Origin: Candidatus Omnitrophota bacterium
GTDB taxonomy: Bacteria > Omnitrophota > Gorgyraeia > Gygaellales > Profunditerraquicolaceae
Assembly: GCA_028717245.1 (NCBI GenBank)
Contig: JAQUOD010000002.1
Location: 140,772 to 204,771 of the forward strand
DNA: 64,000 nucleotides
Reading direction: 5' to 3'
The stretch's first letter is position 1, and each line of letters opens with the position of its first letter. The notes beneath the pieces were generated by a model, which saw only the letters and a list, made by a program, of their open reading frames with translations, was not told the DNA's origin and ran no database searches. The position numbers were made by a program, and so were the translations under genes. Of the stretch, positions 30,001-51,000 are shown piece after piece.

Positions 30001-33000
30001 ACATTGCCGTAACTGTCTTGCACATTTTAGGGATAGCCAAGCCCGAGGAGATGACCGGCAAGAGCCTCCTACCGGATGATTATGTGGGCGCTAAAGAGAG
30101 GATTGTCTGGGAGGTCCTCTTAGACGGCTTTGGCCACACTGATTTTGCTGATCCAAAAAATGCCTTTGGCCCGGCAATCAAGCAGGGCATCATACCTACG
30201 ATTAAAGGATTATATGACCAAGATAACTACGCTATCCTTAAGGCCGCAGGTTGGTATGCCGGATTAAGAGGCGGCAGACAGGAAGATTTTAGGCCCGAGG
30301 AGATAAAGAACAGGGAGACGATGTTAAAAGGGGTGGCCCAGGCTGCTGAAAGTCTTAAGCTCCCCATAAAGATTATTTATTATGATTACCGTAACATCCC
30401 TGAGGCAACTAAAGCCTACGATTATCAGGCAGGTATAAAAGAGCTTCGGGAGAGCCCGTTCTTAAATGACAAAGATTTTGTCGTCAAGACGCTGGATAAT
30501 GAAGTTAATGTCCTTTGCCTTGACCCGGCGCAAATGGGCTCCACTGAATATAATACCTGGACTATAGGCGCAGGCCGCATTGTCAAGCAGTCCATTGTCG
30601 TCTTGGATGAGCAATTTATTAGCGGGGAAATCTGGGGAAATCCGGCCTTAAAAAATTATCTTGCCTTGGCTAAGAAACAAGGCTATGCCCACATGGTAGG
30701 CTTATTGCAAGAAGCCGGGGTGCATGCCTCAGCCACTCAGCTTTACTATCAAAATAAAAATTTCAAGAAAAATGGCATAGAGAGTCTTATGTTTGACTTA
30801 GGCAGTGACGGAAGAGACGAAGGGCCGAGGGATTGCCTAGGTCGCGTGCGCCAGCTTAGGGGAGCGCTTAAATATTTTGGCATAACAGATTATACAATCA
30901 ATATCCGCGGCAGAGAGATATGTTTTGACCGGGCTAAGAATTGGAAATTGACCGTAGCCTTTATTAACGAGCTTGTATTTGGCAGCCGGCTTGAAAAAAG
31001 AGCGCTGCAATCCGAGGAGCATAGAAAAGACAATCCCGGCTTTATCAAAGGCATAGCTTTATTAAATATGCTCTTAGTATTATTCGGGCTGGGGATTGTA
31101 GTTTCGTTATTGTTAGGTGTTTTTAAAAATGACATGCCTGTCCTTGCTGGATTGCCTCAGGGGTTTTTAAACTGGTTTGTACCAATGAGTGGGGTTGGTA
31201 TCAGCGCATTGATATTCTTGGTGGGGGTGTTAAGGGGTAGTCAATTCTTTGACAGCAGAACCTTAGAAAAAGTTATTCGCAAGCTCTTTGATATTGCTAT
31301 TGGGAAAACTGCGGGAGATAAAGAATATGCCGGGGGACTTTTAAAACAAATAGCAGAGAAAGTTGATAGTGATGATGTATCGCTGGGAGTGCGGCAAATA
31401 GCTGTTGGTTTGTCAACGCTGGAAGGCCTGGTTAATAATAATCCCCCGGATAATAAAAAAATAGGCTCCATTCTTAATATTGTTAATAACAGATTTACTG
31501 AAGGGGTAGAGGTCATATTAGATAACGAGAAATTATTAAAGATATTGATTCAAGCAATGAGCAGAGACAAAGAGATAAGCTATCAGATAGACTATGTATT
31601 GTCTTTTGAATTAGGCCTGGGAGAGAAGCTACGTGATAAAATCAGGCAAGCCACAACTTCTTCCGACCTCGAATTAAAGGAATGCGCCCAAAAACTGTGG
31701 GAGGAATTTGTAGAAGATACCAACAAAATCATAGATACAGATTTAAAAAGAGGCCGGAATTGGCAAGGCGCCATGGACACGTATTTGGGGACGGCTAATG
31801 ACGAAGGCTCAAAATTTTTATTAAAGAGGTTATTAGAGCCCAAAGAAGATCTTCTTGTGCAAATATACTCATATTTATGGCAGGTCAAAAGATTTAAAAT
31901 ATTTCATCAACATCTTTTGCAAGCTATGCATTCATCGGACGAAGAATTAATTAAGCTGGCTAAGAGTGTATTTGATTCTTTTAGTGAAATGATTACTAAA
32001 GATATAAGAGTAGAGGTAGAGATAGATATGAGAGATTACTACATTGATGCCATTAAGATATATCTTGATTTTCCCAATGGCCCTTCTTTAGATTATCTAA
32101 AGAAAATGTTCAACCAAAACACAACATATAAATTGGGAATACGTAATGCTATTATGAGTATATTATTGAGTAGCGAAGACGCAGATTTGCAGGCAGAAGC
32201 AAAAAAGTTATATTATGAACTTTTCCCAGAACCCGACACAAACAGCGACCACAACCTGCGCCTTGATACGCAGCGCCTGGCTGGCCGCATTTTAGAGGTT
32301 GTTCAAAAAAATAATATTTTCTTAAAGGTATATAATGAAGCCTACAAAAATAATTTAGAATATATTCAGGAACTCCATGGCAACAGGGGCCCGCCAACCA
32401 AAGTAGAGAAACGCTTTGCCCGCACTAACCCCATTGCCCGCGGCCTTACCCCCGATGGAGATATTAACTGGCTCATCTCCGCTAAATTCAGAAAGTTCTC
32501 GCCCAAAGTGCTCGCCTCCATTAAAGAACACGAATCCGGACGCACGGAACTACAAGGTTTAATCAGGCAGTATAATCAATCCCGGCAGAAAAAAATTTCT
32601 CCTATAACGAAAGCCTTTTCTAAAGTATTTAATCCGCAAAGCCTAATTATCTCATCATCCGTTATTTTTATCTTAGCTTGTTTAGGTATAATAATCGGCA
32701 AACTTAATGCTATGGGATTATTTGTTATCTCAATATTAATGGTGGGGATGGTTACGACAGCCCCCTTGATGCCTTCCCGCGATTGGATGGAATGTTCCCG
32801 GCAAATTGAAGCATGGGTAGGTATCAATACCGCTGAAACTAGAAGTTTGATTATATCCATGTTCAATGACCCTGACCGTACGGTAAGATTAGCGGCAGTT
32901 AACGCCTTTAATAAAATTAAAGACGAGCGGGCTGGCTTTGGGTTGTGTCAAATTATAAAAGACACCGATGAATATTTTCAAGTGAGGGCAGCGGCTATAT

Positions 33001-36000
33001 GTGCATTGGGCAATAATGCCCAAAAAATAGACGGCCGGGCCAAAGAAGCACTTGAGGCAGCAGTATTGGGCGGTTCTTTAATCGCAGAAAAGATTGCTAT
33101 TGCCCTTAGGCAGATAGGCGACCCGGAGGGTTTAGTTATACTTAAAAAAATATCTATACCAGCAAATGAAGATAGATTAAAAAGGCTGGTTAAATTCGCC
33201 AGAGATAAATTGGAAGGGAAGTCTATTGAGGATAAGCTTATAGCTTTTGCCCAAAAGTGCACAGGTAAAGATTTGGTTACTACCACAGCCAGCGAGTTAT
33301 TAGGAGAAGATTCCAACGACCTCTATATATTTCCGGGAGATTTTATTATACCCGGGTTGAATATAACTCCAGAGGGGGGTTATGATCCTGACTTGTATGT
33401 CGGTAGGCGCCAAATTAGTGATGGCCTAAAGATTGTTTATGAGATGATTCTCGCAGCAAAAGAAGGCAAGATTGTCGGGCAACGTTATTATCAATTCGAG
33501 TTTGCTGGTGATGGGCAGCCACCCTTGGTAAGGTTTAATTTTATAGTTGTGGATGAGGCTTATAGGCGCCAAGGCATAGGGAGAATACTGATGGATTTGT
33601 CCGTTGAGAAGGCGCTTGCATTAGGATGCACAGAAGAAGCGGATTCTGGCGTGGCTAATACGTCATCAGCCGAGGGTCTTCATAAGAAATTGTATGGTAT
33701 GAATTCAATTCCTTTGGGAGAATTTACCTTTCCTTTAAAGTTAATTCAAAACAATATAAGAAAAAATTTTAGGGAGGTAGCGGCGAGAGAATGGCAGATG
33801 AGTGGTAATCCCGCACTTTTTATCCTCGAGAGTATGCCTAAGGTAGAGGAATTCGTCAAAGAATACCCGGATAAGGTACTTAAGATATCCAAGGCATTTT
33901 CGCAGCGATTGGGCATAAGCGGCTTAGACGTCGAATGCGCCATAGCCAATTTTCTACGGTATTTCGTGTTTACGTGCCGGTTTACCGATATCTATAAGGG
34001 TTCTTTGGAAGGGGTGCTTGATGCCCTTATTGCTTATTCGGATCCGGTATTGCGAGAAATGGTAGATATATTCGGCGAGCACTTTAATTGGCAGCAACAC
34101 CATGTGGAGAGTTATTTCCTAAGATTCATCGAAACCGAGCAGGCGCGAGATTTTATCGCGAAGATCAAAGAGATAATCGCGCAAAAAAGGAAAAATAAAG
34201 AGGCGACCATAAACATCCTTATTCCCGCTTGTGCTTTCGGCCAGGAGATGATTACTTGGGCCTGGTACCTCAAGCAGAATATCGACCCTTCGGTTTTGAA
34301 AGAATTTACCTTTATATTCATCGGAATAGATAAGGAAGAAGTAGTGAAAGTAGCTAAAAGGAAAATGGAGTCAGGGTTCGATATTCTTTCGGCGTTGAAG
34401 GTCGATATGAGGGTAGACCAGTCAAAAAAACAGATAAAGAAAATCCTGGATTTAAAGGACGAGGTTAACAGTAATCTTGCCTATTACCGCAAGAAGATAG
34501 ATTTTGTTGCGGACACACTTCCTTCCGATAAGTTCAAGAGGATGCTTCAGGGCGCGGATCTGGTGATCATCAATAATCTGTGGGAATATCTGAATTACGA
34601 ACAGAAATGGGAGTTCGCAAAGATGCTACGCGCAGCGTTAAAACCTCGCGGGCATTTGCGTATTGTAGGCAACGACCTTGCAGAAGGCAGTTTCCGGTGG
34701 TTAGTCACTATTCCTGCTCAAAGCGTTGAGTCCAAGCAGGGGCCTCCGGTTTTTTGTTTTACCGGAGGTATTGTTGAGTTGGGAATTTTAACTTTATTAG
34801 CGCAGTCATTGGAGTTACCTTGGACACTTACCGTTAGCGCTGGTATTCTTGTAGTAATAGGAGGCTTATTCGCCTTCAAAAATAGGCATCGGATAATGGC
34901 TAAATTGAGAGAAAAATTCAAACGCCAAAAATCTTCTCCCCCAACGAAAGCGGTTGTTAGGCAAGAAAGAGAAGATTACTTCCCCAGCGAAACTCTTGCT
35001 CTAATTAATAAAGGTTTGCGAGACCCATCGGTTCGCAGGGAATTAAAAGAGGCTTTAAAGAAAAAGGATGCTCGTCAGAATTGTATTTATCCGGGCGACA
35101 GATGGGAGGCTTATTTAAATGGAGTTAAAGGCAGGATAATCAGTTTTCAAGTAATTTATCCTCTGCAGGGATTACCTCAGGTAATTATAGGGGAAGACAA
35201 ATATATTATAGCCGGCCCTTCAGAATTAGAACAAGCAATAATTGCCGAAGCGAAAGGAGAAACTACGCTCCGGTTTACTTCCAAGGTTCCTTTAGGCGGC
35301 CCTTTAAACCTTAAAGACATTTCAGTTTATAATACAGCCTCAAAGGAGGTTTTGGATTTGGCTTCTTTCCTTAATACATTCGCTCCCGCGCCGAGTGCCG
35401 CAAAGGGTGAACTGAGCCCTATAGAGAGCATAATGAATGCCAAGCCGCGCGGTGTAATAACGAGAGATAGAGTAGGCGAATTCTATCCTCGCCGCTTAAA
35501 CATTTATTCGTATTGCATTAATCAGCGCTGGTTGATTACAGGTTATAACGGGAAATATTTTCCCGGGGAAGAGCCCCTGGTTTTTTATAAGGTTATTTCA
35601 GGGGACGTATCAGACATATTTTCTTTCCATAAACTCGCAGAATTAATTTCTAACTGCGCATATAGTGAACCAAAAAGAGACGGGGAGAGGGTTGCGCAAC
35701 TATACCTTACAGAAAGAAACGATGGATTGTTGTTTATCCCTAGAAAAGAAATCGATTGGCTTAATGCCCGCGGAGCCCTTTTAGAAGGATATTTACTCCT
35801 TCAGGAAGCACATCCACTTAAGCAGGGACCAATAAGAGAATCATTCGGGCACTATTTTATTATTAAAGGAGCCAAGAATTATAAAATTGAAAAAGATAGG
35901 AAAAAGAAGGTTATCTCGCGGTACGAGCGGAAGGCACCCATAGAAAATAATCCCACTATGACCCATAAAGGCGCTATGGTTTCGGCCATAGTTACTATAA

Positions 36001-39000
36001 TTCTTGCAGCGTTTGGTTTCCGCTTAGGCCTGCCGCAGAAATTTATTTTATCCGGGGAAATAGTGGGCGCATTATTTTATGCTACAAGCTGCATAGTTAA
36101 GGTATATGAGCTCGCCTTAGGTGCGCATCCAACCCGGGCCGGGCCGGAAGGAGTTATCGCTACACCGGAAGAATTCTATGTGTTAGAGGCAATAAAAGCA
36201 CGCATCAAAGAATCCGGTTCTTCCTTGACTAAAGCCTTGTTCTGTTTCTCCGCTTTACCTTTATATATTCTTTGTCCTTTTATCTCTATCCACGAAATTA
36301 TCGGGCACAAAATCCTAAGGATCTCAAAGAACCAAGACTGCTTTGCCTATATTCTTCAGTGGTTATTGAGTTTTGCCCTTATCTTCCTATTCATCAGTGA
36401 GTTACCTTTAGCGATTGGGGCGGGCGTGGGCTTTATATTTGTAGGAATGGCTTACTCCGGGCTATTCGGGCTGCCCCGCCACAAAGAATTATTAGGGCAT
36501 TTATCCCAGATTAAGGGATTCAGGAATAAGGATTTCTCTTATGACAGATTACGGGAGAAAGTGCGCTTCCTGCTTTTATATAAAGGTAAATCAGAAAATA
36601 TAGTCCATACCTTTGTTTTTGAAGCAACAAAAACGATGGCAGGCGCTGTATTACGGGGCGAGAAATGCCGAAGCCAGGTTTTAGGGCTGGCAGGCGCGAT
36701 ATCCGGCCTTTATGAAATAGTTATAAAAAGAGGGACTACTCTTGAGAGCGTCAACTTAGGAAGGCTTTTGGCAGTGCCGGAGTTTGTATGCGATAACGGC
36801 GTGGTTTTAAAAGAGTTTGACGCAATGAGCAGCAATACGGCCTTTGAATTTAAATTCCATCTTAGTTTGCGTAAACTTTATCAGCAGGTAATAGGCGTGG
36901 ATTCGGCGTGCCTGCCCCATCTGAAAGTATTGACTGTTTATCCCAGATTCAGCGGAATAAGAAATTTAGTGTATTTCGGAGAAGCTGATAACGGCTATGT
37001 AGTTAGGGCAATAAATGATTTTGTTAAAGCCAGGCCTCAGTTCGCGCGAAAGCTAACGGTTACCCAAAAAGGAGGCGTGTCTATAAAATTAAGCTTGCCT
37101 GAGATAAAAGAATTCCTCTTTTGCGAATCTACCTTGGCGCTCGCCCGGCGAGAGGAGAAAGCATACAAACAAAAATTATTTACGGATAATTTTAAGATGT
37201 ATCGCCAGGAGATGGAAAAAATAATAGATGACAAAAAAGGACAACTCCAAGGGAAAAAGTTTGATGTGATTATTGCGGTAAGCAATTCTAGAATAAGCAG
37301 AGCTTCTCTAAATACTGTTTTACCCGAGGAAAGAATAATTTCTCTTAGAGACATCCTAATAAAAGAACTTGGGCAAGGTATCCGCCAGGGCCTAAGATTT
37401 ATGGATTTAGGAACCGGTGATGGAGGATTTTGCTGTGAATTTAAGCTTTTTCTTCACCATAAACTTGGTATACCTCTTAATAGTATAGCCGGTATCGGCG
37501 TTAATGATAATACTAAAGATGGTATTGACCCGGGGTTTAAAGATGATGGCGCAAACTTGTTATTTATTATCAGTAAGGTAGAAGATTTGCCGGAACAGGC
37601 TCCGTATCTGCAAGATAAGTCCATAGACATTATTACTATCAATGCGCCGTGCTTAACCAACAATAGCATCAACTTTCCTCTTTGGTTAGAGGCGGCAAAG
37701 CGTTATTTAAAAGATAGCGGCCTGGTTCTTATAAGGCTTTGTTTGTGGTTACCTGGCTCCGACCAGGATGTTCCTGAAGAAGCCGGGCTTGGGCTAGCTC
37801 TGGAAGAATTAAAAATCTTAGAAAGCGCTTTAAATAAAGATTCCGGGCTTATTTACCAAAAATTCGCACAACTTGATTCGCCGGATTACCCGCGGGGCCA
37901 ATATTGGTTAGGCCCGCTTGTGCTGGTTAAAAAAGCTTCAGCGCCTTTTAAAGAATGGTATCCAACGGGAAGCATTCAAAACTGCACCCCGAAGGATTTG
38001 ATTAAATACGGCTCTAAATTAATCCTAAAAGGCTTAATCAGAAAAGGCAATATAAGGGGCGGTTTGTTCTTGGAATATCTTGCGATGCGGATTATTCTTG
38101 CTTTTATCAAGGAATACGGCTTGATTAACGGCCCTCCTTTTTGGATGTTCACCCGGTCTGTTGCTAATAAGGAGATTGCCAGTATTAAGGAATTAGAAGA
38201 ATTTGAACCTGCCGCAAAACACCTGCCCATAGAACTCCAAAATTCCATTGTTTTTGACCACGAAGAAGCCCATCGCCAGGGGAAAAATGAAGAAGAGGCA
38301 TGCTTAGCCCAAACCCAGAGATGGCGGCAGGCAGGTATAGAGGTTATAAAGCTTTCATTCCCGTCGTTAGATAAACCTGTGTTGGCTATTTTTGATGTGC
38401 ATGGAGTCTTACTTCAGCCGACATGGAGGCAAGAATATGCCTTGGCTTATTGCCGGCTTACGGGAAGAACTGAAGATAAAGGGGGGATTAGGTGGGTTAA
38501 TCAAAATGTGATTCATGCCTCAGGGGAAGAGGTTATTCGTTTGTTATCTCAAGCATCCGGGAGAATAGAGAAAGAGGCTTTGGAGTGCCTTGCTCAAGCA
38601 CGAATAGATTCAAGGAGAACTAGTGTCCCTCTGGCTATGCCCGGTGTCTTGGAACTTATTAGGGCGCTTTATGAGAGAGGCATACCCATTGTGATTACGA
38701 GCGGCTCAGAACATTCTCTGGTTATTCGTCAGCTTAAAGAGCGCGGTTTCCTTGAGTTTATTCCTGAAGAGATGGTTATCTGCGCAGACGATATTTCGCT
38801 TTCTACGCCAAGCAGAAATGGCAAATCGCGATACCGGGATTTGGTTATAGAAAGCCTTAGGCACCATTTCCCGGGATATACATTTTTGTTTTTTAACGAT
38901 TGGGTTGAGGGCATTAAGGCAGTGAAGGAATCAGGCGGCATAATTTTAGGTTTGCCTCAAGGAAAAGGCCGAGAGAGAACGTTTAATCGCGAGGCGTTAA

Positions 39001-42000
39001 TTAAAGAAGGAGCTGACATTATTCTTGATGGCTGGCGCAACTGGCAGGGCCTTTTAGAGATATTGCGCCTTCAAGGAGAAGCCCAGAAGCCTTTTAGGCA
39101 AAAGGATAGGATAGAGGCCAGGATTTATTCTGATACCCCAGCGCTTTTAGAAAGGTTTAATTCGCTTTTAAATATTAAGAAAAGCCTCTCAGAACAGAGC
39201 TTAAGACGGATGTTTCCTGAGATCTACGGTTATTTATACCAGCGCTCTGAAGAGATGAATTTTGATGCCGAGAAAGCGCCCTTTGCAGGGGAAAGGAATC
39301 TTTCGCTAACGAAGCATATTCTTGAACGTGGTTTTGGCAGAAAACTTTTAGGCTTAGAAACAAAAGACATAAAACTCTTCCAGGATGAACCCGGTATTTC
39401 CAAGGAAGAGTTTAAAAAACTTTGCAGCATAGTCAGGTTTCTTAAAGAAAATAATCTTCTTGCTCATCTACGCGCGGCCTTCCTCTACCATGATGCGGCT
39501 AAAGCCGGCCTTCCTGAATTGAGGAAGGAATGGCAGAAAATCGAAGGGATAGATTTTAGGATTCCCAATAAAGCAGCCGGCCTTATCTTGCGCAATAAAG
39601 TTTCTTCCGGCAGTTGGCAGAAAGGCCTTTTTGAAAATATTGAGTTGTTTAGACAGCATCCTTACAGCCAAATTCTCAATGAGTTCTTTTACCGTCTCAT
39701 TGAGATGCGCGGATTCCCCGGGCAATGGGTAAGAGGAGAGGTATCTTACGATGTTTTTGTTGATTTTACAAATTGGGTCCGGGCAAATTTATCCGCTTTG
39801 TCCGAGGCAATTGGCTGTAAAGATCAAATAAGCGCTGCCGGAATAATAGCCGGTATCGTTTATCTCTTTAATTTCCTGGATACCGCTAGCCTTCGTGAAG
39901 GATTGATGACCACTCGTCTCAACAGGCAATTTGAGGAATTCTTTATGGATATGTACCGGGTGATTAAGCCCGAAGGAACAGAGTTTAAAACAAACTGGCA
40001 GGATATTCTTATTGCGCGCTGGGGGGACCTTGCTTCTGTTGAGGCACAAAAGAAATATCTAAAGGACCGCTTAGGGCGTTTCCGCCAGGAAAGAAGAGAT
40101 TTGGGCGAGCCTCTGCATGAGATAGGGCGGGTTATAGATAATTTGAGCCTTGATGCCGCCAGTGTTCTCTTTAGCGACTTACAACATTTCCAAGGTTGGT
40201 ATGTGGAAAGCGCCACTTTTGGATTACGGGCTGAGACTCAAGTAAAGGTTATTGCGCTTGCTTTAAATATGGCTAAGAGAAACAAAGTGAATATAAACGA
40301 ACCTTTCCACATTAGTTTCTTTGATTTTATGCATATACTCTCCAGCGGCCGGCACCAATTTGATTTATATAAAATCAGGATTATTGAGTTCCTATTACGC
40401 GATATAAAGTTAGAAGACTTAATTTTAAATCCGCAGGCCTGCGCGGCTTTTGACCCGGAAACTTTAACCCAAGGCCAGGAACCTACATTTGGGTGCGTAG
40501 AAATGGCCATAGAGGGCAGGAAAGCTATTTCTTTTGATTTTAACTTTAGCGAGGAAACAACCAGCCTCTTGGCCCTGGTGCATAAATATGAATTAAGGGA
40601 CTCTATTAAATTCCAGCAGGCGCTAAAAATGCTGTTAGACCTGTATGGAATTCGTATAGACGGGTTTGACCGGGTTAGTAACGAACTTCTTTATTTACAG
40701 GCAATGGAATCTGCCATGCCTGATAAGGCTCGGCTTTTAAATCACGGTAAAGGTAAAGTTTGGGTTGATGTTGGCCCCGGAGCTGGAGGGACGCTGGAGA
40801 TAGCCGAAGGGTTAAAGAAATCCAGAGGGATAGAAAGAATAGTGGCGATAGAGAAGTCCCAGGCAGCATTTGAGAAGTTACAGCAACAAATAGCCACGAA
40901 ACATCTTTCTGCCCAGGCGGTAAAAGACGAAGCAGCTAATCTTTCTCGCATCCTAAGGGAAATGGATATTCCGGCAGTAGATACAATTATATTCTGCTCG
41001 ATACTGCATGAAATATTTAGTTATCCGGGCAAAGACGGTAGAAACTTTAATATTGAGTCGGTAAAGGATGCTTTACGGGCAGCCCTTTTGTCTTTGTCCA
41101 GTGGTGGGCGCATTCTTATCCGGGATTGGCCTATGCCGGAAGATGGCGAGGGAATACAGATAGTTGAGTTAAGAGGTAAAAATAATAAAGAAGCATTTGA
41201 TTACTTTATTCAGAATTTTAAAGGTAGGGATTTATCAGGGGCCTATGAAATTATTGAGGAAAATTTAAAGAATGAGATATGGAAGATAAAAATGTTGCGT
41301 AAAGACGCGATGGAGTTTCTCTTTAAGTTAAGCTGGTGCTATCGCCCCGAATACAGCCCCATCAGTTTAACATATGAGGTAAGAGAGCAATACGGTGTGT
41401 TTACTCGAAGCGGGTATATTAAATTGTTTAATGATATAGCCCAAGAGCTAGGAATTACCGTAAAAGAAGTCCCCCTGGCTTTAGAAGAAGAGTCTTATTT
41501 ACAGCGGGGTTACGTTGATAACTTGAAAGGCAAGGCGCGGCTTTTGAATCTGGAAGGAAAAGAAGTCCCGCTTCCTGACAGCAATATGATGATTGTCATA
41601 GAGAAAGTTACCGCGGTAGAACCCTCCGGCGCGCGGGAGGATAGAGCACAGAATGAGGAAGGTTTAATCAATAGAGTAAGTAATTTTATCCGGGGCATAA
41701 ACCCCGCCTTGCAGAAGATTCTAAGAGAACACGAAGCTGGGTATGACGGCAGAATTCCAGAAACTAAATTATACAAATACCCCTTTGTCTGTGAGTTTGC
41801 TTCACAAGTTGAGAAAGAACTATTGATTAAGAAGTTTGGCAATTTAATAAAAGTTAGGGTAGTACAGGGAGAAAAAAGAACTCTTTCTCAATCTCACCCT
41901 TTCGATCCTCACTGGTGGATTGAGATAGATTTCAGTAATGTAACATATTACCTAAGTTTTACAGATACCCAGTATTATCCTTTTGAGGACGGAATCAAAT

Positions 42001-45000
42001 GTTTTTCTTCTAAGGAGTTTGATTTTTACACTAATCCTGTATTCTTAGAGAAAATTGACAATATACTCATAGAAAATCTGGTGAGATTTGAAGCAATCGG
42101 CGAAGATTTCTATACAAGGGAGATGCTCGATATAAAAAATAGAGATATTCCTGGTTATCAGATACCCATTTTACCAGAAATTTTAGAGCAGCTTAAGGCA
42201 GGCGGTTATGATATTGACGATGAAAATAATGGGGAAAATAATAGTGGCAAGTCCACTTTTAGTGACGGCAACGCTATGTGTATTCTTCTTCCTATTTTAG
42301 CAGGGCTGGGTGCGGGTGGCGTTGTGGGGGCTGCGGTTTTTGCAGTTTCCTCGTGGGTAATGCCGGTAATTCTAGTTGGAATTGCTGCTTTAGCTATAAC
42401 ATGGATATTTGGTCACAAAAATGAGGAGAATAACAACCTTCTTATACTTTTTAGCCTTCCTATAATTTCACTTTTGCTTTTATATTTAACCGGGCATATT
42501 CTTAGTAATCACCTAGATTTACAGGTTTTTATTACTCCTTTTGCCTCCGGAGCGCCCATATTATTAAGTTTGGCCTTGCCCATTATTCTACCCGAAGATA
42601 ATAATAAGGAGAATACCCTGAAGCGCCAAATCCTTACTTTAGCGGCTCAAGGATACGGGAATAAAAAGATTGCCCAAGAAATAGGGTTATCTGCGGTAGA
42701 AGTAAATAAGGCAATGCATGCTTGGTATTTAGAATATAATATTCCCAGCAGAAAGAAGGAAAATCGGAAAAAATTAGTTTTAGCGGTAAAGAAGGCAGGT
42801 GAATTATCAGACGACTTGGAATTTAACCCGCTTACTCAACGTGAGACCCTGGTATTAAAACTTGTTGCTCAAGGTAAATCTAATCAGGGAATCTCCGAGG
42901 TCCTAACTATTTCCAAAACAGCTGTGCACGGGCATATATCATGTATTTATAGCGCATTACGCAAAATAGGCTTTGATGCCAGAGGCCAGTTTAAGCGGCT
43001 ACTGATGGTAAAGTTCGCCCAAGACAAAGGGTTTATTCCCCCCGGTATAGACATTACCAAATTAATAATAGATAGCTACGGTAAACGTAAAGTTCGTGTT
43101 GTTGAGTTAATTGCTGAAGGTAAGAACTATAAGGAGATCAGTATTAAACTAACAATGCCGATAGGCCAAGTGAGAAGCGAGGTATCGAAGCTATACCAAC
43201 TATCTGGTGTTCGCGGCCCATTAGAGCTGGTAGAATGGGCAATAAAAGAAGGAATAATCTCTTCCCAGAAGTATAACCTGGAAGCTATTAAGCGTAAATT
43301 TAGGAATCCCCTTAAGCCGCGAGAAATAGACACATTGAATCTAATGGCTCAAGGTAAAACTAACTCCGAGATTGCCGAAGGTTTACAGATTGGCCTTGCT
43401 ACAATTGAAGATTATGTAGGCACTATTTTTGGTAAACTCAAAGTCGATGGCAAATCCCCTGATGCCCGGCTCATAGCTGTAAGAAAGGCTATGCAAAAAG
43501 GCTTCATTACTTTACAGGACACGTTTGAATTAGAAATAGGATTAAAGAACCCTTTAACAAATCGGGAAATGGAAGTGTTAATTTCGGCTGCCGACGGCCT
43601 TTCAGAGGAAGAGATTTCTGAAAAGATCGGAATCCAGAAGCGTAAGGTGCGCGAATACCTAAAGAGTGCAAGGCGCGCATTAGGTTTAACAGACGAAACC
43701 CCCAATCTTAGGGTAATTGCGATAATCCTATTCTTAGCTATCAGTAATCCGGGATTAAAACCGCAGGAGATAACACAATTCCTGATTACAGGCCAGCCAA
43801 AATTGAGTTTAGGAAGAATTTGGTTTACCAAGCCCGAAGTGCAATTATATACTTTTGAAGGCCGAAGAGTTATGCTCCGTATTCCAAAGGAGGCTGTTAA
43901 TAAGGATGTCAATCTGGAATTATTTAAATTTAACGGAGATTTCCGGGGTTTCTTAATCCGGGAATTAAACAAAGGCAAACCCGGAAAGCTTTTAGATAGC
44001 TGTGTCTTATTCAAAGGGGCATTCCTGAAGACACCCGAGCGAATCCCTACTGTTTTACTCGGTAAGTTTCAAGAAGCTCAATTGATTGCTTTTGACTACA
44101 GAGAATTACTAAAAAAGCTGCAGGCTATTCAGAAAATCCCCTATCCTGAACGGGATAATATCGCAGAGATTTTGTTTTATGCCGGGAAGCTGTATCCGCG
44201 AGAGATGGCAGAGCGCCTTAGTATGTTAGAAAAAAAAGTCGATCCAGCTAAAAGGTATAGCCCCGGGGTAAACAGGATACTTAAGCAACTCAGCGAAAGT
44301 GTTAAAACAGAGCTATTTGCAATAGATTCAGAACAGATTCGTCAGGCTTTGAAGGCTTATGCTAGCGGCGTAAAATCTACTAAAGATGAGCAATTAGTAT
44401 ACTTATTATTTAAAGCTGTAAATAGCAATGATAATGTTGTAACTCTTGCCAGGACCATTAAGAGAATTATTCGAAAGGATAGAGATTTTCGGCAAGAATT
44501 CGCTCAATTTACATGCAGAAAAGGATTAGACAATCCTAACGTCCGCAGGTTATTAAGTTTGATATATCCAGAAAATTCTTTGCTTGGGGTTAAGAATGGG
44601 TTTAAATCCTGCGGCAATGCGTTAGGAGTCGGCACTATTTTTTGCCTGGCTTTTGCTATCCTGGGTTCAGCCCTGCTTGTTTTACATTCCCTGCCTGCCG
44701 CAGAGGCAGGCATGGCTGGCGGGGGGCAAATATTTAAATGTATTGCCGGGGCTTCTACCTTGGGTCTTATATTGTCAGTTGATGGGGACACGGGATGGGC
44801 CTATAGCGGGGCCAGATGGCTTGAGGGCACACTCGAAAAGAGGCTCGGAATCAAATATTCATCCGGGCTCAGAAAAATAGGGGAGTGCCTTAGGCGTTGG
44901 AAAGATAATACTTTATCTCTTGAAGAATCAGAGCTGCTTATAGAGTTTTACGAAATATTTAAGCAAGATATGCAATCCCTCACTGGAATTACTGAAAACG

Positions 45001-48000
45001 AAAGGAAAAACAAGGGGATAAGAAGCAATGATGCGCAACACCAATTAGATATTATAGCCTTGCTTTTACAGGGGATGCCGGTTGCTCAAATAAAAGATGC
45101 AAGAGGCATTTGGTATGCCCGCTCGCGCCCGACAGTCTATAAACTTAGAGATGAAGCCTTGGCGAGGCTGTTCTACGGAAAAAGATTAAACAGGACAAGG
45201 GAATTTTTAATCAGGATAGGAAAGCTGCGCCAGGCGTCTTCCATGTCTTCGGAGGAGTTTCTCAGCGAGGCTGTTAGAGCAATAAAGATGGATAAAATCG
45301 CTTTGGCCGATGGTATCTCTTTATCAGAAATAAGCCTGCCTGATAATTGGGATTGGAAGAAAAAGAGTATTTTAGAGTTAGGCTCTGGCTTAGGTTACAA
45401 TGCCTTTTATGCCTATTATCAAGGCGCTAAAGAAATACGCGGATTGGATATCTCGATACGGGCAATAAGATTAGCCGGGGAGTTATCTAAATATCTTGAT
45501 GATGCAGAGGTTAAAAGGGCTATTTTTAGCGATTCTCCCGACGACATCGTCCAAAGGGCCAGCGATATAAAAAGGGAGGCAGAAAAACAAACGGCTAATA
45601 TAACTTTACACCGGCCAGAAAATTTGGCCTTTCGGCAGCACGATATCACCACGCGCCTGCCCTATGGGAATAACTCATTTGATATGGTTAACGCAACATT
45701 CATATTACATCGCTTAAGTAAAGAAGGGCAGGAATTTGCCATTGAGGAGATGTTGAGAGTTATTAAAGCCAATGGCCTTGTGCACGCTACTCTTTTGACA
45801 AGCCGCGAGATAAAAGAATTGTTTGTAAAGGCAGCAGAGATTTTACAGCAGGAAGAAAAAATGCCTGTCTCTTATGATATTAGTATTTCTGGCAAAGGCA
45901 CAGGATGGTTGGTTAAGGTAAAAAAGGCAGAAGTAGGATTAACAGAGGAAAGCAGGGAAGGCACGCTTGCCGAGGCGTTACGGGATCTTGTTGATATGCC
46001 CCTAACCAGCGCTGAGTTACGGGAAAAAAGAGGCGTACACAAGAAAACCGGGAAATTCTTCCACATCAGCGTATTCCACAAAGAGCTCAATGGCTTAATG
46101 AAGTTTGGCTTGGTGGAGTTAAAAGACGGAGAGTATTTCTTGACTGAAGTCATAGCGCGGGCTCCGCCGGAAGCAAGAAGAAAAATTGTTGAAACCCTCA
46201 TTAAAGAAATTCCCGAACTCAGCCGCGCAAGCCTTTCTAAATTCTCTCCCGAAGAAATCGAGCGGATAAAAGGCAACATAAAGCAGGCCTTACAAAAATT
46301 TTTCATTGCCTGGAAGCTTAGCTTATTTGAGGCTTACCCGGCCCCGCTGACGCCAAAAGGCAATGCTGCCTTGTCAGAGGTAAAACAAAGGCTTAATTCT
46401 AAGGCATTAACCCCTGAAGATAAAGAAGAGATTCTTAAGCTTTTGAGTAACCCTCCCTTTGAGTGGTTTGAGGGATATTTTAAAGGAATAGATAAACAAA
46501 AAGTGTTGGAGTGCCTTTTTAAATATTTATCGAACTTTAAGGTAAGTGTCACCGAGGGCTGTTCAGTGCAATGCGATTATTGTATGCGGGCAGCAGGAAC
46601 AAAAGTCTCCTATATGCCTTGGCCTTGGGTTTATGAATTAATAAAGTTTTCGGCAGAATATAGAGAGTTTCTTAAAAATAACCGCGATAATCTGCCCCTT
46701 TATCGTAATGAAGAAGAATTAAGTTCGTTTGGCAGCTGGTTTGATAATGACCCTATGCGTGATTACTATGACCCGATTTACGATAAAGATTACGCTGACA
46801 TTATTTCTGAGGTAATAAAAAATAATGCTGTGTCTTACGAGGGTGTACACGCTCCTACGTCGGGTTGGGAGATCGGTTCAATAGGCGAACGCGCGATGCG
46901 CAAGCTCATAGGAATAAAACACGAATATTCTTACCTTATGATTCATATCAGCTTTAACATAAGCGCGGAGAAAGAGTGGTTTAGAAGAATAGGGCGCGAA
47001 GAATATATCCGCCATATGAAGGCAGCGTATGATTTGGCACGGGAAGTACGTCTGATATTTGAAGCGAGTTTTGAAGTGGGGGGTTTTGAGTATTGGTCAA
47101 CCGGCCCTGTGGACGCAGAATTAATACAAGCAATAGTAGGGAAACTCCTTCCGCATCATTTAGAGTTGATATCCCAGGAGTGCAAACCAGAAAGAGTGGG
47201 CAGGGCCATCCAATTCCCCGAAGAAAAAACGCGAAAGTATATAAAAGAGAAGCCGGTTATTCTTTTTCGGCCAAACATAGACATCATCGTTTTCGAGCAC
47301 GACAAAAAAGGCCGAATAAGCAAGGAATCTTTATTGCCGGTTTTGAGCAAACAAAGCCAACCTGAAAGCATGGTATCTAAACGCGTCAATCTAAACCCTG
47401 ATATTTCCCTGGATGGCCCAGAAACGCAAAAACGGGATAGGGTAAATGAAGAATTTTTGTTGAGGCTATCTCCACACCTAAAAGAGGCGTTAAGAATCCT
47501 TGAGGATTTAAGAAGGGAAGGGATTGTGCAGCATTATTATCTTGCCGGCAGTTTAGCCAGAGGAGATTTTAAAATTCCGCCTAAGGATGTTGATTTTGCC
47601 ATTAGTTTGACGGTGCGCGGGTTTAATGAGTGGCTTACCTATCAAGATAGGGTAATAGAAGGCCTGGAAGACTTAAGAAGGAAAACAGGAATAAATTTTG
47701 TAATTTCATCTACTGAGCCGTATGGCCAGCTATATAAAGTTGGCGAATCGGGTATTGAGCCGGAAGATATATTGCGGCCGGATATAATAGAGAAGACAGA
47801 GGACGGCAAGGAATGCATTCTTATTGATTTAGGCGGTGCTTATAAGTATATCTTCACTAAAAATGATTTCTTTGTCGAATTGTATCGCAAGATCCGCGAT
47901 TATAATAAGAAGAGGCAATCTACTCAACCCCAAAAAATAATTGGCCCTGGCGCCCCGCACATCTCAAATATTTTACTAATTCTGGTTTCTGCGGCTATAA

Positions 48001-51000
48001 TCTGGTCGTTTATCAATGGCCATTGGCAGGCAGGTTTAACTGCTGCATTTATTCCATCTTTTATGGGCGGCCTGGGCGCATCTAACCCGCTTGAATACGC
48101 AAACAGGGTTAAAGAAAAGGCGGAAGAGCTTTTACAAAAGAAAAACGCCGCAGAATTACCTGAAATGGAAGTAAGGGCGTATGAAGAGATATTAGAATAT
48201 CTTCAGTTAGCAATCGCGGGAGATGAGTTTGTAGATGGCAGCACAACAGAAGGCTATGAAGATATTATAGAAAGTGGAAAATATGACGATAAATTGAAGG
48301 ATGAAGCAAGGCGTAATTTAAAATCAGTTTACATGGAGATGATTGAGATTTACCAAAAATTATCCCGCCTGACAGGCGAGGATTATATTGATGCAATACT
48401 CGGTTCTTATAATGAGGCAATAAGGTATAATCCCAAAGATTTGGAACTACACGCAGGATTAGCAAAATATTGCTTAAAGAATGGCCTGCTCTCCACTCTA
48501 TCCGAAGCAATAAAATACCTTTCCCAGACTATTGAGGGGCAATTGAAATTAGCCCGGGTTTATTCAGATTCAGAAATGTATGAAAGCGCAAAAAATGAAG
48601 CCTTTGGAGTTTTAAGCCGCGAGCCGGACAATACTGATGCTCTCGCTCGTTTATTATTTCTCTATAATGTCATAGGCGATATGGATAGGGACAGGGTTAT
48701 TGCTGCGGCAGAGTATATTATAGACAATGCCTCTTTGAAAAAAAAGAAAGATGTTTCTAACGCTCTATGGCGGAGTTTTAATAACGTCCAAGAAGCATTG
48801 TTAAGAAGTGAAAAACTGGAAAACATATTAAAGAAGGCAATAGCGGCTTATCCACATCTGGGTGATAGATTTGGGAGGTTCCTGGTAGTATTGGGAATGA
48901 ACACAAAAGAAGAGATTGGGCAGTTGCAAGAAACCCAACTCGGCATAAATAAAAAAATCACAGCTTATCAACAGAAAATAGCATCTCAGATTAATCTTAA
49001 GTCAACCTGGCAGGGAAGGGAAAAATTTGTAATCGGAGTTTATAGGCAGGCCTTAGCCGATGGCATCATAGGCTCTGCCGAGATTCTAATTTATTTTTTC
49101 CGCGCCTCTTATTCTATTAACTATCCCCTTTATTTTATTTTGAAGGAAATAGAACCTCGCCTTCAACAAAGGCTTAGCCTCGGCGAAGCGGAAAAAACAA
49201 AACTTTTGCGCCAGTTGATAGAAGAAGAAACAAGAAATCATCAGTCTAAATTAAGCAATGAGGAGAAGGATGAGCTATGGGCAATCTCTAGTGTAATAGG
49301 AGGGGAATTTGGTGATGCCTGGTTGGAATGGATTGAAAGAATCTTTACCATCGTTTTACCATTTTTATTTTTAGGTTTAACTATTTGGCAGATGTTTCAG
49401 GGAGGGGGGATTCCAGGCGCGCCTTTGGTTGCCTTAGGAGTTATTCCTGCTATACGGCCACTTCCTGATTTAGTAAAAAATTTACGTCAAGGCCTTAAAC
49501 CTTTACCTAACGACAGCACAGTTTATCTGCCTGAGGGGAATATTGCCAAGAAAAAAAGAGGGCATAAGATAGGGATTATAGTTGCCACAGACGGTAAGAA
49601 AAAAATTAAATGGCATGCGAAAGAGCGTAACTTGCTTTTAAGAAACGAGGCAAACAAGAAAGAGTTAATGATTACAGTCTTGCTTAAAAGCCTTAAGTTT
49701 AGGCCTATAGATACAATCTGGGTTGGCGATACAGAATATGCCTTAATTCAAGATAGGGCTGATAAGAGAAATGTTTTTATGAGAAAGATAAAGAATGAGA
49801 GTAAGGACGGCAGCTTAATTTTTGATGGGAAAGAGGCGTATCAGTTAAGAAAAGGCGCGCGGGCAAGACTAATAATTAGCCTTGAGCAATTAAAAGAGAA
49901 TCCGGATGTAAAGAAATTTTACGGTAACGAACAGCAACAAAAAAATCTCCCGGGAAAAATCACTGAGGATGAGGCGCATTTCAGGGATTATTCCGAGGAT
50001 TTGCTGGAGAAGAACCTGGAGCTTTTTGTGCTTCTTTCCAAGAGGATGATGTTAGAAGGTAAGGAGAAAGAAGAGACGGCGCAAAGAAGGGAAGAGCTCG
50101 TAGGAGAACTCTTAGATTGCGCTATTAAGTACCATATTCAGAGGTTTAAGAATGATAAAACCAAAGTCAGGGTAGCCAAAATAAATAGAATGATTTTAGA
50201 AGCAGTGCAGCTGATTAACGCGGATAATGAAGTGGCAGCCCATGCAACTTTATATGGCGCAATAAACAGGATTAATGATATTCGCATAGAGTTGCTGAAA
50301 GCGCGGCTTAAGAAGAGAAGAGGGTATGGGCCAAAATTATGGTGGGATAGCAGCGCGGTATGTATTTCTCAACAGAGGTATATCGTCCCAGAGGGCGGTA
50401 GGAGGCCTATGTTAGGAATAGCCGTAATAAAGTATAGAACGCTCTGGGAGGCAATTAGGGGGACAGTTGAACAGGTTAATTCCGAGGCAATAGAGAAACG
50501 CTGGGCCGCTAAGAGCATAGAATTGGTTTCCGCAGCGCTTAATTTGATGGAGAGAGTCAAATCAATTCAGGATGGTGTTCCTGAAATAAAATTAAGCCAG
50601 CAGGAGCGCGAGGAGATAAAAGCAAAACTTAATAGTATGCTTAGCGCAATCGGCCAAGTGCGGGTTGAGGAGAAGAGGGCCGTGAGGCTTCTAATAAAAG
50701 CGGCCCTGGAGATAATATCATTGGGAGACAGGCATAATCTGACTGCCGAAGCATTTTTAATCATAGCTAGATACTATCTGCAAGAGAGGGAGGAAGATAC
50801 CGAGGCAATGATTAAATCGCTTAAGACTGTAAGCACCGAAGGATTAAGAGGCATGGCAAGGACCAGAGACAATTATGTATTAGAGGCTAGTGGAGAAATT
50901 ATTGATTTAATAAATAAGGATAAGTTAGGGGCTGCCTGCAACGAAATTAATAAAATGATGCGGCAATACGGCCTTACCCAAGAGCCCGAATATTTAATCC

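Follow-up and report, generated by a model that had tools for sequence, protein, structure and literature searches.

A probable mosaic of independent membrane-tethered modules within a giant open reading frame of Candidatus Omnitrophota

A stretch of 64,000 nucleotides from Candidatus Omnitrophota contig JAQUOD010000002.1 (assembly GCA_028717245.1, positions 140,772 to 204,771), called the window throughout, is filled by a single giant open reading frame (ORF). The giant multi-enzyme ORFs of Omnitrophota rank among the longest genes known. In the present study, frame +3 (3..63998, + strand) was found to be open at both ends of the window and to encode at least 21,332 amino acids. Six-frame translation gave 0 stops in this frame over the 64,000 nt, against 656-1,973 in the other five frames, and the probability of meeting no stop in 21,332 codons, computed from base composition, was about 1e-616. 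Moreover, all of the Pfam and NCBIfam matches in the window fell in frame +3. Within this ORF, a first-pass annotation made from the letters alone had marked the interval between 33.4 and 47.6 kb as a fused block of modification enzymes resembling a tailoring system, with a GNAT acetyltransferase, three S-adenosylmethionine (SAM) methyltransferases (MTases) and a weaker fourth one, a HAD-like fold, a radical SAM core and a minimal nucleotidyltransferase (NTase). All six peptide strings that it quoted were recovered in frame +3 where it had placed them, and the fusion into one polypeptide held at the level of the ORF.

The interval carries the following five groups of modules: a GNAT domain with a CheR-type MTase; a Pfam-dark domain, here named module M, with an MTase and a HAD-like domain; a PRK06922-type MTase; five LuxR-type helix-turn-helix (HTH) units; and an MTase, a radical-SAM-like domain and an NTase-like domain. 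Between these modules lie hydrophobic hairpins or four-helix bundles, along with sequence that has no recognizable family, and approximately 44% of the interval has no annotation of any kind. The five LuxR units, the hydrophobic hairpins and bundles and module M had gone unmentioned in the first reading. Furthermore, the limits of the interval are arbitrary, because the same ORF runs on at both sides with further enzymes, repeats and HTH modules.

The GNAT acetyltransferase (33444..33689, + strand) matched PF00583 above the gathering score (E 6.9e-8; 33.2 bits against a cut-off of 20.7), and its acetyl-CoA motif A is intact (RRQGIGR). It is followed by the weaker MTase candidate, a CheR-type class-I SAM MTase (34125..34673, + strand; PF01739, E 9.8e-6) with the SAM loop PACAFGQE, which scored 25.6 bits and thus lay 1.4 bits under the cut-off of 27. 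The second MTase (37383..37751, + strand) is of the Methyltransf_31 type (PF13847, E 1.6e-7, 31.6 bits against a cut-off of 27), with DLGTGDGG as motif I and the string LRFMDLGTGDGG at nt 37392. The fourth (45357..45818, + strand) was matched by Methyltransf_25, Methyltransf_11 and Methyltransf_31 (PF13649, E 1.9e-12; PF08241, E 5.9e-11); its motif I reads ELGSGLGY, within LELGSGLGYN at nt 45372, and its beta-2 strand has an acidic end in GLDIS. The HAD-like hydrolase domain (38385..38936, + strand) received support from a PF00702 match (E 8.1e-5), which at 23.5 bits is below the curated cut-off of 26.4, and it showed weak NCBIfam matches to an inorganic diphosphatase and a PhnX-like model. 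In its motif I, DVHGV, the nucleophile Asp is retained and the general acid at Asp+2 is replaced by His; TSGS and NDWVEG are candidate motifs II and IV, respectively.

The third MTase (40161..41606, + strand) was weak in Pfam (18 bits) and matched NF005379 strongly, with E 6.9e-64 over profile positions 342-676 and a further upstream match of E 2.4e-11 over positions 242-324. Its motif I is VDVGPGAGG at nt 40758, in the string VWVDVGPGAGGT at nt 40758. Thirty-one homologues from Gemmatimonadota, a soil metagenome and Lederbergia were found at 28-37% identity, most of them covering 78-95% of the query. These homologues are whole stand-alone bacterial proteins of 650-900 amino acids, and the PRK06922/NF005379 family at large consists of stand-alone proteins of about 680-890 amino acids from diverse bacteria, whereas the domain described here sits inside a giant ORF, leaves about 240 N-terminal profile positions unmatched and scores 216 bits against an equivalog cut-off of 602. 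To our knowledge, no substrate is known for the PRK06922 family. Three of the four MTases thus belong to class I by curated Pfam scores or a strong NCBIfam match (Methyltransf_31, Methyltransf_25 and NF005379), and these three, all except the CheR-type domain, have GxGxG plus an acidic residue ending beta-2. The four MTases showed no mutual relatedness detectable by BLAST. Searches of solved structures with the MTases, GNAT and HAD domains gave matches that were too weak or none at all, so that the substrate class of these domains, which for the MTases the first-pass annotation had hoped to read from structure-based homology, could not be assigned.

A further claim, namely a radical SAM core at the string CSVQCDYC, concerned a segment that scores below the Pfam threshold. 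The Cys triad C-x3-C-x-Y-C lies at nt 46560-46583 (CSVQCDYC at nt 46560), and the CxxxCxxC motif occurs a single time in 21,332 amino acids. An exhaustive HMMER search over 1.84 billion representatives with nt 46350-48149 as the query returned 68 proteins in two domain families. Family A (46356..47363, + strand; query residues 3-338) comprises 48 cluster representatives, which are hosted by other multi-thousand-residue proteins and by small proteins of 278-500 amino acids, with P0007, P0009 and P0012 as stand-alone examples. In an alignment of 28 family A sequences, C71 and C78 were 100% conserved and C75 at least 90%, and an aromatic residue preceded the third Cys in most sequences. Beyond the triad, the elements MPWPW, DP.RDYYDP, T(S/A)G...GS.GERA and S..W.R..G...Y are conserved, which gives the lineage signature GCSxQCDxC...MPWPW...DPLRDYYDP...TSGxxxGSxGERA. 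PF04055 was matched by 18 of the 28 members individually, and the NCBIfam MoaA and KamA models matched the window just around the Cys motif. When the family A profile was run against the Protein Data Bank (PDB), only radical SAM enzymes were matched, the best being YydG/EpeE (E 2.3e-5); in that alignment, 'sDpLrD' of family A falls on the 'GGE' strand, and the 'sNGf' strand is paired with 'TsGf'.

The AlphaFold2 model built from the family A alignment reached a predicted local distance difference test score (pLDDT) of 84.4 and a predicted template modeling score (pTM) of 0.85. The top Foldseek matches in the PDB were nearly all radical SAM enzymes (DesII, SuiB, EpeE, viperin, MgmA, RimO and AprD4), with HydG, OxsB, BtrN and LIAS at lower ranks; the probabilities of the top radical SAM matches were 0.87-1.0 at template modeling scores of only 0.25-0.45. 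Thus the CxxxCxxC motif does lie in a predicted radical-SAM-type fold, and the rare family, the PDB profiles and the predicted fold together bear out the original claim. Like the PF04055 enzymes, family A has CxxxCx(aromatic)C after beta-1 and a profile alignment that spans the beta-2 'GGE' and beta-3 'NG' strands; its closest solved members are the YydG/EpeE peptide epimerase (8ai3), DesII (8hzv), SuiB (5v1t) and viperin (6q2p). It differs in the replacement of GGE by a family-specific (N/S)DP-x-RDYYDP and in the extra conserved MPWPW element; in the window, NDP(M)RDYYDP stands where the canonical GGE would be, and the 'TNG' strand has TSG. Neither a SPASM or twitch domain nor another auxiliary cluster, for which the first-pass annotation had proposed to look, was present: cysteines occur in the 350-residue segment only at positions 55, 71, 75, 78 and 278, and the two outside the triad are not conserved in family A. 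These data, including the predicted model, support the placement of family A in a divergent lineage of radical-SAM-type fold that lacks the canonical GGE.

Around the stand-alone family A genes (loci L001-L003), the neighbors had nothing else in common with the giant ORF and offered no clue to function. In L001 (3244-6418, + strand), the gene for P0012 stands in a run of six small, closely spaced genes on the same strand (108-238 amino acids, no Pfam match), none of which resembles other giant-ORF modules; its surroundings are ordinary (LipA, homoserine dehydrogenase and HIT).

The second family returned by the search, family B (47427..47930, + strand; query residues 360-527; 20 cluster representatives), covers the proposed minimal NTase, with GSLARGD at nt 47547 and DVDF at nt 47586. 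Several members, including P0020, P0036 and P0043, are stand-alone proteins of 177-210 amino acids. Across the family, S51 and D63 are invariant and G50, G55 and D65 are at least 90% conserved, which yields a GS...DxD signature. Although the window copy, at 18.8 bits, scores below the Pfam threshold of 21, PF01909 (NTP_transf_2) was matched by 19 of 21 family B members (best 9.4e-8) and Polbeta by 16 of 21, and the best PDB profile match was ANT(3'')(9) (7uy4, E 0.004) over the GS...DxD core. These family matches support the NTase claim, and on the basis of sequence family B is likely a member of the Pol-beta-type NTase superfamily. The hG[GS]-x9-13-DhD signature of minimal NTases (PF01909/PF18765, MNT-type) is kept across family B. 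In contrast to these enzymes, family B has its own C-terminal extension of about 100 amino acids (FH.T...PFG.VY...LIDL...FF..LYR), and no HEPN or other partner adjoins its domain. A conserved third catalytic carboxylate was not found in family B. The 185-residue family B protein P0036 and the 2303-residue module M protein P0084 came from metagenome-assembled genomes (MAGs) labelled Candidatus Altiarchaeota and Euryarchaeota; these homologues may stem from a mis-binned, archaeon-attached Omnitrophota episymbiont or from gene transfer between the partners.

Module M (36438..37289, + strand) is a domain of about 280 amino acids that is conserved in other giant ORFs at 45-57% identity, and it also occurs as stand-alone proteins of about 330 amino acids (P0074-P0080). 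Approximately 40 positions were invariant in 13 aligned sequences (K.FDA.S...FEFKF.L.L.KLY.QV.G...RN.VYFGE...FDVII..SN). The AlphaFold2 model was confident (pLDDT 82.4, pTM 0.81), and module M had no Pfam match, no PDB profile match and no Foldseek relative in the PDB or BFVD. The spacing of the invariant FDA...FEFKF and the alpha/beta-strand pattern of the model led to the conjecture that module M might be a PD-(D/E)xK nuclease, for which Foldseek (PDB, BFVD) and the PDB profile search gave no confirmation. The stand-alone copies are flanked by a Peptidase_C69 gene and a FabH-like gene; nothing else in these neighborhoods (L004-L006) is shared with the giant ORF, and no functional hint was obtained from them.

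Between the third and fourth MTases lies an array of five LuxR/GerE-type HTH units (42618..43688, + strand; PF00196, E 2.1e-37, with NCBIfam LuxR-family matches). By jackhmmer mapping, the units extend over 42618-42731, 42828-42995, 43077-43220, 43308-43469 and 43551-43688 (+ strand), and the internal repeats share 25-34% identity. Further LuxR-type HTH units were observed downstream at 58614-58745 and 62904-63050 (+ strand), so DNA-binding modules recur along this membrane-studded ORF. The hydrophobic segments of the interval, all on the + strand, were located by a Kyte-Doolittle scan and consist of a hairpin of two predicted transmembrane helices (34746..34877) with a 6-residue loop free of Lys and Arg and 9 Lys/Arg among 20 residues in the C-terminal flank; a cluster of four predicted helices (35958..36395) with 7 Lys/Arg in the N-terminal flank; a second cluster of four with very short loops (42282..42587); an apparently single segment at 44628; and a probable hairpin (47937..48071), with 7 Lys/Arg in its N-terminal flank, that closes the group of MTase, radical-SAM-like and NTase-like domains. 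In the whole ORF, 33 hydrophobic 19-mers were counted by this crude scan, many of them in hairpins or bundles and some inside enolase. The charge pattern of the hairpins, with short loops free of Lys and Arg and outer flanks rich in them, fits the positive-inside rule with the soluble parts in the cytoplasm, as far as can be judged from the residues.

Among related sequences, module M was present in 20 metagenome loci, in 10 of them inside ORFs open for more than 4,000 amino acids. In 8 of these 10 giant ORFs, nothing else resembled the window within 10 kb on either side of module M. L012 and L015 are the closest by module identity, yet their neighbors are unrelated to those in the window: PRTase, Metallophos, WD40, GNAT, Methyltransf_28 and HTH arrays in L012, and glutamate dehydrogenase, MraZ, cytidylyltransferase and DHBP synthase in L015. 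In L007 the module order is A-M-B. L009 and P0002, an NCBI MAG protein, share 98% identity, which means that two assemblies have yielded this ORF independently. Five modules of the window are found in it in the order X (31.0 kb)-A-M-Y (50.3 kb)-Z (55.3 kb), the positions being those of the window counterparts, within about 2,900 amino acids as compared with 8,326 in the window, and A and M are swapped relative to the window. No Pfam match was found anywhere in L009/P0002, and none of the Pfam-recognizable enzymes of the interval was present in it. In P0006, a GNAT domain stands directly upstream of the family A domain, and in P0021 nothing adjoins it. The pairing of module M with an MTase was also present in P0001. 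A conserved pairing of families A and B was considered and rejected, since 0 of the 68 representatives carry both.

The modules shared in this manner are all Pfam-dark and lie in the window at 31.0 kb (X), 36.4 kb (M), 46.1 kb (A), 50.3 kb (Y) and 55.3 kb (Z). L009/P0002 keeps the backbone without the named enzymes, and the relatives differ in order and neighbors, which suggests, at the sequence level, that the named enzymes are variable cargo between conserved dark backbone modules. GC and GC3 were uniform across cargo and backbone modules, and this test for recent foreign acquisition of the cargo gave no sign of it. The 2965-residue P0006 starts with a complete sigma-70 factor (regions 2, 3 and 4) and carries a peptidyl-arginine deiminase-like domain in addition to GNAT; transcription-factor modules in giant ORFs are therefore not unique to the window.

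All of the named nearest relatives (P0001, P0002, P0010, P0073 and P0083) are from Candidatus Omnitrophota/Omnitrophica, and the ORF itself was absent from the databases searched, in which the best segment identities were 48-57%. Giant proteins of this phylum have been described in two preprints. West-Roberts et al. 2023 (bioRxiv 10.1101/2023.11.21.568195) described 'Archaeovorin' giants with HEAT, TPR, PPDK, glycolytic enzymes, MTases, SAM-dependent methylases, peptidases and GNAT, counted Radical_SAM, HAD_2 and PPDK_N as belonging to the 20 most frequent domains, and cited results of others on the transcription of such ORFs as a single mRNA and on the detection of a 39,678-residue example by proteomics. 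The same work reported a divergent SecA DEAD-like domain, an N-terminal C39/S8 peptidase, GT5/GT1 and NUDIX, with flanking type II secretion, pilus and PilZ genes. No SecA DEAD-like, C39/S8 peptidase, GT5/GT1 or NUDIX domain was seen in the 64 kb, beyond which the ORF and its neighbors extend. Nielsen & Lui 2026 (bioRxiv 10.64898/2026.06.07.730766) catalogued 916 long proteins with a threshold of at least 10,000 amino acids, defined a 'multi-enzyme metabolic cluster' class, and distinguished a Pfam Module 1 (MTase, GNAT, HAD and HD) from a Module 2 that includes radical SAM. They gave a transmembrane content of 2%, found a signal peptide plus transmembrane helices in 39% of long Omnitrophota proteins, and discussed an inner-membrane-anchored, cytoplasm-facing arrangement.

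The window ORF fits this class of multi-enzyme giants. With at least 21,332 amino acids it exceeds the catalogue threshold; it is tiled by many of the published Pfam families (HEAT_2, TPR, PPDK_N, glycolytic and glycogen enzymes, peptidase, HD, GNAT, MTases, HAD and radical SAM); it has about one predicted transmembrane helix per few hundred residues by our crude scan; and it has few relatives at the sequence level while its domain repertoire recurs. It differs in the LuxR-type HTH arrays, the PRK06922-type MTase and families A, B and module M, which are not mentioned in the available part of the two preprints. With the polyketide synthase (PKS) and non-ribosomal peptide synthetase (NRPS) megasynthases, the window ORF shares many catalytic domains on one very long polypeptide, but it lacks carrier, condensation and ketosynthase domains and any repeating module logic, has transmembrane hairpins between its domains, and does not keep its order among its relatives.

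On this evidence, we consider it likely that the interval is a slice of one multi-enzyme Omnitrophota giant gene, in which independent, membrane-tethered and cytoplasm-facing modules are set as variable cargo between dark backbone modules, and which does not form an assembly line. Each module would act as an independent enzyme or DNA-binding unit, a view based on the free-living single-gene homologues and the intact cofactor-binding motifs of each of them. The modules would be anchored in the inner membrane by the hydrophobic hairpins, and their soluble parts would face the cytoplasm, which would supply acetyl-CoA, SAM, nucleoside triphosphates, the reductant of the [4Fe-4S] cluster and DNA. 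This orientation is favored by the charge pattern of the hairpins and by the cofactors that each module of the interval requires. During the evolution of the gene, cargo modules may have been gained and lost through domain shuffling.

Several points weigh against this proposal. The CheR, HAD, radical SAM and NTase domains are under the curated thresholds; in particular, the window sequence scored 19.3 bits with PF04055 against a gathering score of 29.5, over profile positions 1-20 only, and 18-19 bits with PF01909 against a cut-off of 21. As judged from the motifs, the HAD domain without its Asp+2 general acid and the radical-SAM-like domain without the canonical GGE may be inactive or perform other chemistry. 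The transmembrane calls come from a Kyte-Doolittle scan and flank charge counts, a crude procedure that also flags buried strands of enolase, and the seemingly single segments at nt 44628 and 47937 would flip the membrane side unless they are hairpins. The window covers neither end of the ORF, nor its N-terminus and signal peptide, nor the neighboring genes. Moreover, most of such domains were predicted with TMHMM to be extracellular by West-Roberts et al. (bioRxiv 10.1101/2023.11.21.568195), and some multi-enzyme giants were placed outside the membrane by Nielsen & Lui (bioRxiv 10.64898/2026.06.07.730766). Finally, the A, M and B families co-recur in three related ORFs, which leaves room for a functional link beyond shared ancestry.

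An alternative that we regard as possible, though unlikely, is that the product of the ORF is a polyprotein, from which built-in peptidases such as the M54 metzincin at nt 20.1 kb would release separate soluble enzymes and transcription factors; the fusion would then serve co-expression only. A peptidase M54 domain does lie within the same ORF, the modules equal whole stand-alone genes, and the LuxR HTH units would need release, or membrane-located DNA, in order to act; autocatalytic cleavage has also been proposed by West-Roberts et al. from the recurrent C39/S8 peptidase domains (bioRxiv 10.1101/2023.11.21.568195). Self-comparison of the ORF, however, revealed repeats at the domain level only and no cleavage-site repeats or linker motifs, and the transmembrane hairpins between the modules suggest permanent anchoring.

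The predation model published for the 'Archaeovorins' would instead make the protein a prey-directed effector, exported or surface-anchored and acting outside the cell or in an attached host or prey, where it would modify envelope, proteins and nucleic acids. This model cites type II/IV secretion genes at the flanks, higher expression upon attachment to Methanosaeta and the TMHMM 'outside' calls (bioRxiv 10.1101/2023.11.21.568195), and the frequency of signal peptides together with transmembrane helices in long Omnitrophota proteins (39%) agrees with it. The family B and module M homologues in MAGs with Altiarchaeota and Euryarchaeota labels, whether by mis-binning or gene transfer, would be expected of an archaeal episymbiont. 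For the window, we find it rather improbable: every module of the interval depends on a cofactor from the cytoplasm (acetyl-CoA, SAM, nucleoside triphosphate or a reduced Fe-S cluster) or, in the case of the LuxR HTH units, on DNA, and the flanks of the hairpins obey the positive-inside rule for a cytoplasmic location. Modules 1 and 2 were also held to be compatible with the cytoplasmic face by Nielsen & Lui (bioRxiv 10.64898/2026.06.07.730766). The cytoplasm-facing reading of the interval thus bears on the question of whether such giants are cell-surface predation tools or membrane-tethered intracellular scaffolds.

It is also conceivable, although doubtful, that X, M, A, B, Y and Z together make up a conserved core of function that unites a subfamily of the giant proteins. 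In this case, the trio of A, M and B, with its radical SAM, NTase and nuclease-like features (the last from the D...ExK signature of module M), could be a new nucleic-acid- or nucleotide-directed machine, and the recognizable enzymes would have accreted as cargo, held at the membrane next to the DNA-binding HTH arrays.

The reading of the interval as a coherent tailoring pathway for a natural product, a ribosomally synthesized and post-translationally modified peptide (RiPP) or an RNA or protein modification, in which the fused enzymes would act in sequence on one substrate, was the one offered by the first-pass annotation, and it is not supported. Group-transfer enzymes (acetyl, four methyl, nucleotidyl and radical SAM) are indeed dense within 14 kb, the best matches of the radical-SAM-like domain include the RiPP-modifying YydG/EpeE and SuiB, and the pairing of module M with an MTase recurs in P0001. 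However, the domain scans of the 64 kb detected no PKS, NRPS, terpene or RiPP core, no carrier domain and no precursor; the enzymes are split by transmembrane hairpins and by the HTH array within what is an arbitrary slice; order and neighbors are conserved in no relative, and L009/P0002 is without all of the enzymes; A and B never occur together in the 68 representatives, and the MTases are not detectably related. Furthermore, the same domain mix has already been published as typical of Omnitrophota giant proteins. A tailoring pathway is therefore very unlikely. Least credible of all is a decaying mosaic, in which the domains would be non-catalytic relics captured by a runaway ORF: several domains do fall below curated cut-offs, the HAD domain has DxH for DxD, the radical-SAM-like domain has no GGE and the pieces of iPGM are separate and out of order, but 64 kb without a stop requires selection, the cofactor motifs are intact in GNAT, all of the MTases, the radical SAM Cys triad and the GS/DxD of the NTase, and each family keeps its divergent motifs throughout, a sign of constraint rather than decay.

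Under the preferred reading of a mosaic of independent, membrane-tethered modules, the window adds one more example of a giant ORF and leaves the overall picture unchanged. The compact relative L009/P0002 separates the conserved dark backbone from the variable cargo and so suggests how giant genes grow. In addition, two rare lineages have been defined, one of divergent radical SAM domains and one of NTases, both of which exist as small stand-alone genes, and module M represents a strongly conserved domain of 280 amino acids with a confident predicted structure and no fold relative in the libraries searched.

The rest of the giant ORF is equally rich in modules. Central-carbon enzymes are embedded at 90-1970, 4530-5160, 10420-12800, 27420-28630 and 28977-31029 (+ strand). 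They include a GlgB-like branching enzyme with CBM48, the alpha-amylase domain and its C-terminal domain, a ribulose-phosphate 3-epimerase (E 7e-41), PPDK_N plus the mobile domain of PEP-utilizers, and the N and C domains of enolase. The iPGM pieces are out of order, with iPGM_N profile positions 135-215 followed by Metalloenzyme and then by iPGM_N profile positions 5-147. An archaemetzincin-type peptidase M54 domain (E 5e-22) and an HD domain also lie in the ORF (20110-20530 and 21735-22040, + strand), and downstream of the interval a metallo-beta-lactamase-fold domain was observed together with two XRE-type HTH_3 units (57036-57270 and 59640-59790, + strand).

Repeats are a further feature of the ORF. 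The HEAT_2 array at 16965-18700 (+ strand), with at least 8 Pfam stretches and repeats of 38-54% identity, is the strongest internal duplication in the window, and TPR blocks are present as well. Pfam-dark duplicated pairs (+ strand) were found at 25083-25620 and 26406-26934 (39%), at 58926-59379 and 62403-62847 (30%), and at 5448-5942 and 55335-55997 (27%); the duplicated segment at 55.3 kb is 52% identical to the corresponding L009/P0002 module.

The PADLOC defence models gave just generic partial matches in the ORF, to an MTase (mad2) and an HTH (CARF3), and assigned it to no defence system. The list of complete ORFs of at least 150 amino acids, which omits ORFs that run off the window, held only three entries, all of them antisense (43412-44014, 1916-2461 and 10337-10858, - strand), and the one at 43.4-44.0 kb faces both the LuxR array and the sequence that immediately follows it. 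These antisense ORFs are most likely by-products of codon bias, since minus frame 0 has just 656 stops. The GC skew was positive throughout the window, and the cumulative skew climbed almost without a break.

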